Positions 8,576-13,740 of a DNA stretch of 24,000 bases are shown here, one piece after another (the first letter of the stretch is position 1; the number at the start of each line of letters is the position of its first letter). Source of the DNA: Bacillus mojavensis (GTDB lineage: Bacteria; Bacillota; Bacilli; Bacillales; Bacillaceae); NCBI RefSeq assembly GCF_031316635.1, contig NZ_VKPU01000004.1, one strand, 5' to 3'. The translations under genes and the position numbers were made by a program. The notes below the pieces were generated by a model, which worked only from the letters and a program-made list of their open reading frames with translations, made no database searches and was not told the DNA's origin.

Positions 8576-8761
8576 AGATACTTGGTCTTTTGATTTTCTT
8601 TCTTTTAAAGTGAGATTGAGAAATAGAAGAGCCAAAAGAATAAAAGCAATATTCACCGTCCAAGACTTCCAGCTTCCAGTGGGGACTAAAATCGTATTGA
8701 AGAGCAGGCGAACGCTTGAAGAAAATGAAAAGAGTAAAAATAATAGTTTGTTTTGAGACAT
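8573..8761 (-). CDS. Hypothetical 62-aa two-TM peptide at the distal edge of the islet (doubtful)
   Basis: From ATG 8761: MSQNKLLFLLFSFSSSVRLLFNTILVPTGSWKSWTVNIAFILLALLFLNLTLKERKSKDQVS. It has two hydrophobic segments but only a weak SD (AGGA 11 nt upstream). It lies downstream of the operon terminator, and its 3' end overlaps the yxbF terminator tail. Confidence 0.25.
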   Translation of the reverse strand: MSQNKLLFLLFSFSSSVRLLFNTILVPTGSWKSWTVNIAFILLALLFLNLTLKERKSKDQVS

Positions 8762-8790
8762 GGTTCTATACGTCCTATACCTTTCTTCTA

Positions 8791-8832
8791 AAAAATAAAA
8801 TGCCTCAAAGCAGATTCTCATCTGCTTTTGAG
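8791..8832 (-). terminator. Rho-independent terminator of the bacteriocin operon
   Basis: Read on the minus strand: ctcaaaagcagat-gaga-atctgctttgag (12 bp, one bulged A) followed by gcattttatttttt. It starts about 30 nt after the HlyD-like stop. Confidence 0.75.
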
Positions 8833-8861
8833 ACATATATGAACATTTCTCTAAATGGAAA

Positions 8862-10331
8862 TTAACGTAAGTGTAATACATCTAAAAAATAATCAATATA
8901 TCTTTTTGAATCAACGATAATTGATACATCTGTCTGCATGCCATTTTTTAAATGTATTTTTGTTCCGTTATCTTTAACAATTTCTTTGCTTTCTATCGTG
9001 CTTTCAGCAATATAAAATTTTTGCCCGTTTTGATCACTAATACTGTCTGGACTTATTTTTGTAATGACACCTTTAATGGTTTGATTTGTATTTTCAATAT
9101 GGAATCTAACCTTATCTTTTTCATTAATATTTGTGATCTCATGACTCGGAATATAAATGTTACCTTTAAGCTTCTCTTTATCAGGGACAATAGTCAAAAT
9201 AGCAGTGCCTGCTTGTAAATTGTCACCTGGAGATATATTTGTTAATACATTAACATAGCCATCACTTGTTGCTTTTATTTTATATTTTTCTAATTGTAAA
9301 TCTATCATCTTTAGATCATCTTCTCTTGATTTAAGAGTGGTCTGAAGATCTGTTTGCTTTTGAGATGTTTGATTTAGCAAGTTTGTTTTGAGTTGCTCAA
9401 TTGAAAGCTTATAATTTGTTTGCTCTGAGTTATCGGAATCACTGTCAAAATCGTTACTTTTCATTGAACTGTTAATCTCATCAAGAGATTGATTTAATTC
9501 GTCTTTTTCTTCACTTAGTTTTACTAACATATCTTGTTTTAAACTTTCTAGCTGTCCGTTCAGATTCTCTTTCTGCTGTGAAAAACTGTTTTTATCGAGC
9601 TCATCTTTCATCTTCTGTAGATCATCAAGCTGCTGCGCCACATTTTGTTTGTTAGTTTGATAACTATTATAGTAAGAACTATACTTATCATCCTGTTTGG
9701 CAAAGGATTTATTGTTTTTAATGGAGTCTTGCAGATCAGAAATTCGTCGAAGCTTTAATTCCACTTTGTTTTTTTTCTTATCGAGACTATTTTTTGCGGT
9801 TTTTTTCTGCTTCTCAAGTTTATTCTGTTGAGTTTTTGCATTTTCTTCTGATGACTCTAACAAATTACTCTGTTTTTTGTAAGAGAGATATTGATCTTGA
9901 TAACCCCAATGATCATCCTCACTGAATAAGTTTTTGTCATTTTCAATACTTTTTTTTAGAGTTTTGTTTAACGCAGCTTGTTCTTTTAAATCTTTGATAT
10001 CTGCTTTAACCGCCTTTTTCTGCGCTTGAATTTCAGTATTTTCTAGCGTAAGCAGTGTATCTCCCTTTTGTACCTTATCAACTTGTTTAAAAGTAACTGT
10101 CTTTACTTTCCCGGCTACTTCGTTTGTTACGTTGCTGTCAGGTATAGTATATTGGATGTCAGCTGTTGTTTTTAGAATCACTTCTTTCTTTCCATAGAAA
10201 CTAAAAACAATAACAGCTATTAATAAGGCCATGAGTAAATAGACAAAGATTAGACCAATTGGTTTTGGTTTTGATTCATAGAGTTCTCTGCTGTCTTTTA
10301 ATTCTTCTATATTAAAAAAGTTATATTTCAT
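8862..10331 (-). CDS. HlyD-family bacteriocin secretion accessory protein
   Basis: 489 aa. Single N-terminal TM (IGLIFVYLLMALLIAVIVFSFY), lipoyl-like GKVKTV...VQKGDTLLTLE, a very long K/Q/N/E-rich coiled coil, and a C-terminal beta-barrel segment (LQAGTAILTIVP...IPSHEI). The start is 2 nt after the ABC gene stop. Confidence 0.9.
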   Translation of the reverse strand: MKYNFFNIEELKDSRELYESKPKPIGLIFVYLLMALLIAVIVFSFYGKKEVILKTTADIQYTIPDSNVTNEVAGKVKTVTFKQVDKVQKGDTLLTLENTEIQAQKKAVKADIKDLKEQAALNKTLKKSIENDKNLFSEDDHWGYQDQYLSYKKQSNLLESSEENAKTQQNKLEKQKKTAKNSLDKKKNKVELKLRRISDLQDSIKNNKSFAKQDDKYSSYYNSYQTNKQNVAQQLDDLQKMKDELDKNSFSQQKENLNGQLESLKQDMLVKLSEEKDELNQSLDEINSSMKSNDFDSDSDNSEQTNYKLSIEQLKTNLLNQTSQKQTDLQTTLKSREDDLKMIDLQLEKYKIKATSDGYVNVLTNISPGDNLQAGTAILTIVPDKEKLKGNIYIPSHEITNINEKDKVRFHIENTNQTIKGVITKISPDSISDQNGQKFYIAESTIESKEIVKDNGTKIHLKNGMQTDVSIIVDSKRYIDYFLDVLHLR

Positions 10332-10333
10332 AA

Positions 10334-12893: not shown

Positions 12894-13145
12894 TTAATGA
12901 CGAATTGATTTATAGACACCATAGCCTGCACCAATGGCTCCCCCAAGAATCATGCCACCAACTATACTAGAACCTCCGGATACAGGAGCGCCTACCATAC
13001 CGCGAATAAGTCCTTTACCTGCTCCTGTAATAGCACCACCTACAGCACCACCTACAGCATCACGTGCTACTGTTTTCCAGCCTCCTCCGTCTATTTCTAG
13101 TAATTCTTGTTCATTTAGTTCTAAACAATTTAAGTTTTTCAACAA
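12894..13145 (-). CDS. Double-glycine-leader bacteriocin prepeptide B (predicted 62-aa Gly-rich mature peptide)
   Basis: MLKNLNCLELNEQELLEIDGG | GWKTVARDAVGGAVGGAITGAGKGLIRGMVGAPVSGGSSIVGGMILGGAIGAGYGVYKSIRH. The leader fits L-x3-EL-x2-I-x-GG. GGAGGG SD. TTG start at 13145, or the adjacent TTG at 13142. 19 of 62 mature residues are Gly, with many GxxxG motifs. Confidence 0.85.
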   Translation of the reverse strand: MLKNLNCLELNEQELLEIDGGGWKTVARDAVGGAVGGAITGAGKGLIRGMVGAPVSGGSSIVGGMILGGAIGAGYGVYKSIRH

Positions 13146-13181
13146 TATACCCTCCTATATTATGTTAATATGTATACTTTA

Positions 13182-13412
13182 TCAATCCCCAGTAATCAAA
13201 TATTTTACTGAGCTTCCGATTGCTCCGAAATGAGCTCCTACAAAAGCGCCTGCAGGGCCAGCAATTAAAGCGCCTGATCCGGCGGAGAAGGCAGTACCTG
13301 TTAATAACGTTTTAGCATAACCTTTAGCCGAATACTTACCTCCATCGATATTCATCAGTTCTTTTTCATCTAAAGCAATAAAGTTTGTATTCAGATCTTT
13401 TTCAACAGACAT
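13182..13412 (-). CDS. Double-glycine-leader bacteriocin prepeptide A (predicted 51-aa mature peptide)
   Basis: MSVEKDLNTNFIALDEKELMNIDGG | KYSAKGYAKTLLTGTAFSAGSGALIAGPAGAFVGAHFGAIGSSVKYLITGD. ATG 13412 is chosen because AAAGGAGG lies 9 nt upstream; the tracked ATG 13433 is upstream of that SD. Confidence 0.85.
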   Translation of the reverse strand: MSVEKDLNTNFIALDEKELMNIDGGKYSAKGYAKTLLTGTAFSAGSGALIAGPAGAFVGAHFGAIGSSVKYLITGD

Positions 13413-13456
13413 TTGAAAAAACCTCCTTTTCATAAATATATCGACGTCGCAAAAAG

Positions 13457-13485
13457 ATTATATAGAAAAAATATACATAAATCAA
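13457..13485 (-). promoter_or_regulatory. Near-consensus sigma-A promoter of the bacteriocin operon
   Basis: Minus strand reads TTGATT (13485-13480), a 17-nt spacer, then TATAAT (13462-13457). It lies about 45 nt upstream of the prepeptide A start. Confidence 0.6.
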
Positions 13486-13740
13486 CATTTTATTTCAATT
13501 TTATGATCTTATATAACTGTTTATATGTATTTTTATAGACTTAAATACCCCCAAAAAGTTCGTGAGAATTCATCTTTAATAAATATTTAGGATTAAGTTT
13601 AGTTTGGATTTTTCAGGTTGCTCAATTATTATAAAGTAGTTAACCCTACATAAAATCACTATGGTTTTTTCTGATTATCTGTACAATTTTATTTACCTTA
13701 TATTAAATAAGACGAGTCTAAGATTATTAAAATAAACGTA

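Follow-up and report, generated by a model that had tools for sequence, protein, structure and literature searches.

A predicted two-peptide class II bacteriocin operon at a polymorphic chromosomal junction of Bacillus mojavensis and its relatives

Results

We analyzed a stretch of 24,000 nucleotides from Bacillus mojavensis (contig NZ_VKPU01000004.1 of RefSeq assembly GCF_031316635.1; the whole stretch is referred to as the window), in which an AT-rich segment between a yxbF-like and a yxbG-like gene holds a predicted bacteriocin operon. Its genes all lie on the minus strand, in the order pepA, pepB, an open reading frame (ORF) of 81 aa, a 730-aa ATP-binding cassette (ABC) transporter with a C39 peptidase domain and a 489-aa HlyD-type protein. 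A preliminary description of this DNA had read the set as a minus-strand operon with a promoter, two prepeptides with a double-glycine (GG) leader, a protein with two transmembrane (TM) segments, a C39-ABC exporter, an HlyD-type protein and a terminator, and this reading is borne out by the ORFs, the hidden Markov models (HMMs) and the folding. The HMM matches likewise agree with the proposal made there that the genes constitute an operon of the unmodified, two-peptide class II type at a convergent junction.

The first gene, pepA (13182..13412, minus strand), encodes a prepeptide of 76 aa that matches PF10439 with 38.6 bits (cut-off 27.1) and has a 25-aa GG leader, ending in MNIDGG and followed by KYSAKG. 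Its start was placed by the ribosome-binding site (RBS) AAAGGAGG, and the ATG at 13412 is the sole one that is conserved in other species. The predicted mature peptide of 51 aa (4,919.59 Da monoisotopic, isoelectric point 9.6) lacks Cys and contains the motifs GAFVG and GAHFG; the exact pepA protein has been named 'Blp family class II bacteriocin [Bacillus mojavensis]' by NCBI. The second gene, pepB (12894..13145, minus strand), starts with TTG and encodes a prepeptide of 83 aa with a 21-aa GG leader, which ends in LEIDGG and is followed by GWKTVA. It scores 27.8 bits against PF10439 (cut-off 27.1) and passes TIGR03949, the lactobin A/cerein 7B model, with 33.1 bits (cut-off 21.5). The mature peptide of 62 aa (5,794.10 Da monoisotopic, isoelectric point 10.6) consists for 31% of Gly and also lacks Cys. 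The two genes are 36 nt apart on the same strand and both leaders end in IDGG, which is the arrangement of two peptides with GG leaders of 15-30 aa by which class IIb is recognized. The same holds for the GxxxG motifs, of which there are two in the mature peptide of pepA and eight overlapping ones in that of pepB, and for the unmodified nature of the class, as Cys is found in neither peptide and no other ORF with an enzyme domain is present in the inserted segment.

When pepB was searched exhaustively with HMMER against 1.84 billion cluster representatives, six matches reached E<=1e-3, whose sole informative name was 'Blp family class II bacteriocin', and word-index homology searches gave one distant match for pepB and two for pepA. 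The best relatives of the peptides outside the B. subtilis group are 42-68% identical. We compared four cassettes, those of the window, of a B. toyonensis plasmid, of B. mexicanus and of B. stercoris, and found that in all four, although divergent (38-62% identity), an A-type peptide with an invariant GAHxGA motif precedes a glycine-rich B-type peptide with an N-terminal GW. This conserved pairing is the best in-silico argument for a true peptide pair, and we hold it fairly probable that the two peptides would act as an obligate pair. Alternatively, pepA and pepB could encode two independent one-peptide bacteriocins, of a class IId-like type, that use one exporter and form no synergistic pair. 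Indeed, Blp-type loci often hold several independent peptides, pepA stays below the cut-off of the class IIb model TIGR03949, and in the B. stercoris cassette there is no ORF between pepB and the ABC gene, so that a rule of one immunity gene per pair is not visible everywhere. Nevertheless, in each of the four divergent cassettes the A and B types occur together, as neighbours and in a constant order, a single immunity candidate follows the pair in the window, and GxxxG motifs are present in both peptides; two independent bacteriocins are in our view an unlikely arrangement.

The 730-aa protein (10334..12526, minus strand) is a peptidase-containing ABC transporter (PCAT), in which a C39 peptidase, a transmembrane domain and an ATPase are combined (PF03412, PF00664 and PF00005). 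Its score against TIGR01193 (786.9 bits, cut-off 523.85) places it in the PCAT family, and its alignment with PCAT1 (4RY2; E 1e-214) covers the full length, with the motifs DCGAAC, H(Y/F)VV and ADPG aligned identically. The gene of the 489-aa HlyD/LcnD-type bacteriocin secretion accessory protein (8862..10331, minus strand) begins 2 nt past the ABC stop codon. The protein matches PF13437, has precomputed Pfam matches to HB_LcnD, LcnD_C and Beta-barrel_AprE, and is by these sequence matches a divergent LcnD-like member with a predicted function like that of LcnD. Both already bear NCBI labels as proteins of B. mojavensis ('peptide cleavage/export ABC transporter' and 'HlyD family…', respectively).

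The ORF between pepB and the transporter gene (12596..12841, minus strand) encodes a protein of up to 81 aa, the start being uncertain, with two hydrophobic helices according to its hydropathy, and is the only immunity candidate that follows pepB in the operon. It is 37% identical over 60 aa to an 82-aa protein that ends the B. toyonensis plasmid cluster. Its amino acids are conserved for 89-93% and the ratio of nonsynonymous to synonymous substitution (dN/dS) is 0.18-0.22. The position of this small membrane protein bears on another alternative, namely that the peptides are secreted signals (pheromones or kin-recognition cues) that leave the cell by ComAB-like export, and not toxins. High similarity of the exporter is seen not only to PCAT1 but also to ComA, and pepA has a weak ComC-family match (E 0.006, below the cut-off). 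In contrast, neither in the island nor next to it is a sensor kinase or response regulator encoded. With 51 and 62 aa the mature peptides are long; they are also cationic, rich in glycine and of a membrane-active type, and the small membrane protein occupies the place of an immunity gene. A role as signals is accordingly considered very improbable.

A consensus scan identified a candidate sigma-A-type promoter, TTGATT-N17-TATAAT (13457..13485, minus strand), which precedes the pepA start by some 45 nt. A perfect 8-bp palindrome, CGACGTCG (13442..13449, assigned to no strand), was read from the sequence of the 5' leader, where it follows the -10 box and precedes the RBS, and is a possible candidate operator. 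The promoter, the palindrome, the RBS and the pepA ATG are all invariant in the carriers among B. mojavensis, B. subtilis, B. vallismortis and B. spizizenii, in an upstream region of 330 bp that as a whole is about 90% conserved, equal to the coding sequence. Directly 3' of the pepB stop codon, and before the immunity candidate, lies a perfect 16-bp hairpin (12853..12887, minus strand; dG -18.2 kcal/mol, z -4.2), which is possibly a partial terminator or attenuator, or a transcript stabilizer, and as such would raise the ratio of peptide to transporter mRNA. The intrinsic terminator of the operon (8800..8836, minus strand) is found 3' of hlyD and consists of a hairpin (dG -20.9 kcal/mol, z -4.8) followed by the T-run UUUUAUUUUUU.

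The boundaries of the segment that carries the operon were set by a local alignment of the window to B. halotolerans ATCC 25096, whose yxbF/yxbG junction is empty. Since homology to this empty site ends at 8539, just past the yxbF stop codon, and resumes at 13744, the insert covers 8540..13743 (no strand), i.e. 5,204 bp with 31.4% GC that replace 6 bp. The spacing of yxbF and yxbG in B. halotolerans ATCC 25096 is 57-63 bp and contains one terminator hairpin that is common to both genes. The GC fraction of the insert, 0.314, compares with 0.453 and 0.432 in the two flanks; in 500-nt windows it is 0.30-0.36 from 8501 to 13500 and 0.43-0.50 on either side, and at third codon positions (GC3) 0.19-0.33 in the island genes versus 0.41-0.56 in the flank genes. 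The sharp change in composition that had been noted before is thus evident at both levels. A second stretch of low GC (0.33) is located near the right end of the window (23001-23500).

The edges had been placed at the terminators of yxbF and yxbG. This is right for the yxbG side, where the terminator hairpin (13749..13769, minus strand; dG -14.8 kcal/mol, z -3.4) belongs to the flank and marks the right edge of the insert; in genomes with an empty site it is the sole hairpin between yxbF and yxbG. On the left the boundary is at 8540 and not at 8576, and the hairpin that had been taken for the yxbF terminator lies within the insert. This GC-rich hairpin, GCCCGG…CCGGGC followed by TTTGTGTTGTT (8542..8564, plus strand; dG -13.1 kcal/mol, z -1.6), recurs solely in genomes that have the island or a remnant of it. 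In island carriers it acts as the terminator of yxbF, and it belongs to the insert, not to the native flank. The flanking genes are convergent. The yxbF-like gene (7363..8538, plus strand) encodes a double-TetR regulator, with two matches to PF00440 and 97% identity to the B. halotolerans protein, and the yxbG-like gene (13769..14587, minus strand) a short-chain dehydrogenase/reductase (NF006366, 511 bits). The names were taken over from the preliminary description; the one identity confirmed is that of yxbF with BSU39850, near asnH, in B. subtilis 168.

The ORFs of the insert include no integrase, transposase or regulator, and a search for repeats at its boundaries found none flanking it, as had been stated earlier for the mobility genes and repeats. 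Rfam gave no match in the window at gathering thresholds, which would have included a tRNA. A self-mobile genomic island, to be recognized by an integrase, transposase or recombinase ORF, boundary repeats or a tRNA, was rejected on the absence of integrase and repeats; the junctions are clean with respect to the empty site.

Past the operon terminator and still inside the insert we found another small gene, orf62 (8573..8761, minus strand), with a weak RBS. It encodes a 62-aa protein with two TM segments (MSQNKLLF…) that is conserved in all island types and in the remnants, with 70-94% of the amino acids conserved and a dN/dS of 0.24-0.59. The ORF is intact in six loci, and that of B. spizizenii TU-B-10 is interrupted by a nonsense codon. 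A role as another immunity or accessory factor is conceivable; PADLOC returned nothing for orf62 or for the 81-aa ORF.

Every tested segment of the window was 100% identical to scaffold JH600280.1; we take the assembly of this scaffold, GCA_000245335.1, to be that of B. mojavensis RO-H-1. A paper of 2014 names RO-H-1 as a draft genome. The sole literature match for this strain concerns a different cluster, that of a LanM lanthipeptide.

The state of the site was read in 14 species representatives. As had been suggested, a comparison of the yxbF-yxbG interval among relatives revealed that the island is not conserved in all of them. The site is empty (52-86 bp) in 5 of the 14, namely B. halotolerans, B. 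inaquosorum, B. tequilensis, B. atrophaeus and Bacillus sp. N13C7. Low-GC remnants of 331-851 bp, all with orf62, are left in two B. spizizenii strains and in B. rugosus (3/14), and full islands with different peptide pairs are present in B. mexicanus and B. stercoris (2/14). The remaining four, all of the B. amyloliquefaciens clade, have des-desKR genes at the site instead of a bacteriocin island. More specifically, the interval in B. amyloliquefaciens/velezensis (contigs L009-L012 of our comparison set, around 11165-14400) encodes a fatty-acid desaturase and a DesK/DesR-like two-component pair, with a GC fraction that is normal (0.45-0.47). The cassette of the window itself is found, with 91-96% nucleotide identity, at the same junction in one genome each of B. 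subtilis, B. spizizenii and B. vallismortis. As the island is common to several species, a recent strain-specific insertion was rejected. The earlier view of a foreign insertion thus holds as far as composition and the empty site in a sister species are concerned, but not as an isolated event, considering that the same site is occupied across species.

Two B. spizizenii strains, TU-B-10 and DV1-B-1, lack the genes for the exporter and the peptides and have kept an ORF for a 52-aa membrane protein (L006 11603-11761 and L002 11489-11644, minus strand). This ORF is homologous to a 60-aa ORF of B. mexicanus (L013 15299-15481, minus strand) that adjoins the ABC gene of its island, and from this homology it looks like an orphan immunity gene, i.e. 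an immunity-only remnant. The B. mexicanus island further differs from that of the window in having genes for an XRE-type helix-turn-helix (HTH) protein and for a membrane protein of 154 aa, and in the orientation of its peptide genes, which lie on the opposite strand. The layout of the B. toyonensis plasmid cluster is the same, with an XRE-type HTH gene and a 152-aa membrane protein. The HTH gene overlaps or abuts that of the multi-TM protein of 152-154 aa (L013 15590-16229; L019 7678-8330). The qualification 'regulator-less', used in the preliminary description, is appropriate for the allele of the window, but not for these related cassettes, and the HTH/multi-TM pair may be a regulatory or immunity module that the window allele has lost.

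In the contig of B. stercoris D7XPN1 (L014 8540-17000) apparent frameshifts interrupt the ABC and HlyD genes of the island and also the core genes aldX and yxbG. Decay of this island was considered and rejected, since a sequencing error is equally likely when aldX and yxbG are frameshifted as well. The assembly probably has indel errors, and for this reason the B. stercoris island should not be scored as a cluster of pseudogenes. Elsewhere in the window a second small presence/absence polymorphism was observed. It comprises the genes for an ABATE/zf-CGNR protein and an HPP-family membrane protein (about 18586-19896, minus strand), which are present in the window and in B. subtilis L021 and missing from the otherwise syntenic contig L027 (SRR18104406) and from B. 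vallismortis L023.

A comparison of the window with the other cassette types revealed a mosaic. Identity is 83-97% across hlyD, drops abruptly at the hlyD/abc junction (around 10.3 kb) to 54-76% in abc, and is at background level in the peptide and immunity region. Both hlyD and orf62 are common to the cassette types, with about 91% nucleotide identity, and synonymous divergence (dS) between types is about 0.30 for hlyD versus about 2 for abc. The island thus is, as judged from these alignments, a mosaic in which the accessory gene is shared and the exporter and peptide cassette has been swapped.

Within the cassette type of the window the dS of the island genes between B. mojavensis and the three other species is 0.20-0.30, and 0.10 for pepB in the comparison with B. 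spizizenii. The corresponding values for the flanks are 0.58-0.68 for aldX and htpG, about 0.8 (up to 0.83) for yxbF and 0.37-0.41 for the adjacent yxbG. These values are consistent with the island having moved between species that had already diverged, through recombination in the flanking DNA and with yxbG hitch-hiking to some extent. A search of the island against the PLSDB plasmids gave only matches of 64-65% over the ABC gene and thus did not reveal a copy on a plasmid. Among outside relatives of the triplet of peptide and immunity genes, the nearest is located on the B. toyonensis plasmid NZ_CP126518.1, at 28-30% GC.

The dN/dS of all five operon genes is 0.06-0.22 in the comparison with orthologues in the three other species, which argues that they are maintained by purifying selection. 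This is relevant to a further alternative, in which the operon is a silent or decaying relic that lost an XRE-type regulator module and is no longer expressed or useful. Such a fate would match the absence of a regulator from the window, where related cassettes carry the XRE HTH gene and the membrane protein, the decay of the locus to remnants in B. spizizenii and B. rugosus, and the fact that the literature searched attributes no antimicrobial activity to the locus. On the other hand, every ORF is intact, the low dN/dS includes that of the peptides, and the promoter and the RBS are invariant across four species. Moreover, all 14 contigs that were read and that have the identical yxbG protein fall in two neighbourhood classes and the island is present in both. 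We consider a relic improbable, even more so than a pair of independent peptides.

Discussion

The gene content, the family matches and the pattern of conservation suggest that the inserted segment is a functional operon for an unmodified, GG-leader bacteriocin of the class IIb two-peptide type, a prediction to which we assign a probability of roughly 75%. Moreover, on the sequence comparisons presented above, the yxbF/yxbG junction of the B. subtilis species complex is a recurrent and polymorphic site of bacteriocin genes, of which the operon of the window is one allele.

The order of events proposed on the basis of this prediction is as follows. The anatomy of the operon, as observed, would allow transcription from the sigma-A-type promoter into a single transcript pepA-pepB-(hairpin)-imm-abc-hlyD. 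The C39 domain of the transporter would then cut both prepeptides after the GG, and the transporter and the LcnD-like protein together would export them; we infer this cleavage and export because the transporter is strongly homologous to PCAT1 and ComA and has the conserved catalytic motifs. The released peptides of 51 and 62 aa, cationic, glycine-rich and free of Cys, may pair through GxxxG helix-helix contacts in the target membrane and, going by what is known of class IIb, would permeabilize that membrane, probably via a receptor that is a membrane protein. The 81-aa protein with two TM segments would protect the producer, considering its position and its partner in the B. toyonensis cluster. 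Finally, the genome comparisons suggest that homologous recombination in the conserved flanks allowed the island to enter the chromosome and lets it spread, and that the cassette of peptide, immunity and exporter genes may be exchanged while hlyD and orf62 are kept.

Several observations weigh against this interpretation. The models named in the preliminary description were found for the greater part (PF03412, TIGR01193, PF10439 for both peptides and TIGR03949 for pepB), but pepA fails the class IIb-specific TIGR03949 (14.2 bits, cut-off 21.5) and the accessory protein stays below the cut-off of TIGR01000 (205.4 versus 258.85 bits), though this is its best-scoring family and is covered over the full length. 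Profiles of the A-type and B-type peptides, compared with all PDB sequences, match no structurally solved class IIb peptide, and the lone match is a leader-level similarity to precarnobacteriocin B2 (E 0.1). The immunity candidate has no family match in Pfam, NCBIfam or PADLOC, its word-index search found only one near-identical copy, and the public gene calls that were examined omit the ORF, also at L016 5439-5805 and L021 8520-8893. Of the promoter type, 26 matches were counted where chance predicts 23.4, so that this DNA, rich in AT, has no excess of them. Finally, the AT-skewed codon composition of the island may account for part of its lower dS.

The polymorphic, cassette-switching site is the more interesting part of the story and has been established in part. 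Taken to its full extent, the idea would be that the junction is a previously unrecognized, blp-like hotspot for the switching of bacteriocin and immunity cassettes in the whole B. subtilis complex. It would have a retained frame of hlyD and orf62 and interchangeable cassettes of exporter, peptide and immunity genes that ultimately stem from low-GC plasmids of the B. cereus group. Spread between species would occur by transformation and homologous recombination through the flanks, and non-producers would be left with immunity-only remnants. The locus would then contribute to antagonism between strains (kin discrimination), and the group would have in these peptides its first unmodified two-peptide bacteriocin with GG leaders. 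We put this forward tentatively, as the combination of all these elements seems to us somewhat less than an even bet.

The antimicrobial peptides described from the B. subtilis group are overwhelmingly modified and comprise lanthipeptides, sactipeptides, glycocins and circular peptides. The literature that was searched contains no description of the locus, no paper that links yxbF or yxbG with a bacteriocin and no report of a two-peptide class II bacteriocin with GG leaders from the B. subtilis group. Indeed, neither a survey of the Bacillales from 2016 nor a review of the B. subtilis group from 2023 lists such a system for the group. The locus had earlier been called probably undescribed, which is right with respect to the searched literature, whereas the genes are already annotated automatically by NCBI. 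The locus thus is an uncharacterized member of a well-understood class that the annotation pipeline already recognizes, and a specialist should be moderately surprised by it. If functional, the operon would offer a genetically simple and easily synthesized antimicrobial from a tractable and naturally competent host, and a candidate locus for strain antagonism among soil Bacillus. In addition, the allelic cassettes, empty sites and immunity-only remnants would together form a natural collection for studying the diversification of bacteriocin loci and their movement between species in the absence of mobility genes.

Comparison with known systems

The organization of the operon resembles that of the class IIb operons of lactic acid bacteria, such as the lag operon of lactococcin G, a comparison that concerns the layout and not the sequence. 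As in lag-type operons, two adjacent GG-leader genes, a gene for a small membrane protein in the immunity position, a C39-ABC transporter and an accessory protein form one operon, GxxxG motifs occur in both peptides, and neither a three-component regulator nor modification genes are present. It differs in its host replicon, a chromosome of the B. subtilis group, in an immunity candidate that belongs to no known family, and in mature peptides without detectable similarity to the structurally solved class IIb peptides. With respect to the peptide families, both peptides are members of PF10439, and pepB alone belongs to the lactobin A/cerein 7B family as defined by TIGR03949.

The exporter aligns over its full length with PCAT1 of Clostridium thermocellum (4RY2) and with ComA of Streptococcus (8HF4), with E-values of 1e-214 and 1e-186, respectively, and shares their three-domain architecture and catalytic motifs. 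These transporters have other substrates, and the window encodes a separate accessory protein of the LcnD type. The uncharacterized cluster of B. toyonensis (NZ_CP126518.1) is similar to that of the window in pepA (62-68% identity), pepB (57%), the small membrane protein (37%) and the C39-ABC transporter (48%). It differs in being plasmid-borne, in peptide genes that are divergent from the transporter genes, in an HlyD protein with only 23% identity and in the presence of the XRE HTH gene and the 152-aa membrane protein.

The blp locus of Streptococcus pneumoniae has a conserved frame for export and regulation around a variable region of bacteriocin and immunity genes. Unlike in blp, there is no BlpRH/BlpC quorum-sensing module at the junction, and the exporter itself is in the variable part. 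In fact, no induction peptide, histidine kinase or response regulator, as would mark a quorum-sensing-regulated locus of the blp, pln or spp kind, is encoded between yxbF and yxbG of the window. The likeness, which is one of analogy only, lies in the fixed chromosomal site, in the conserved part formed by hlyD and orf62, in the swappable cassette of peptide, immunity and exporter genes, and in the immunity-like orphans that persist in strains which have lost production.

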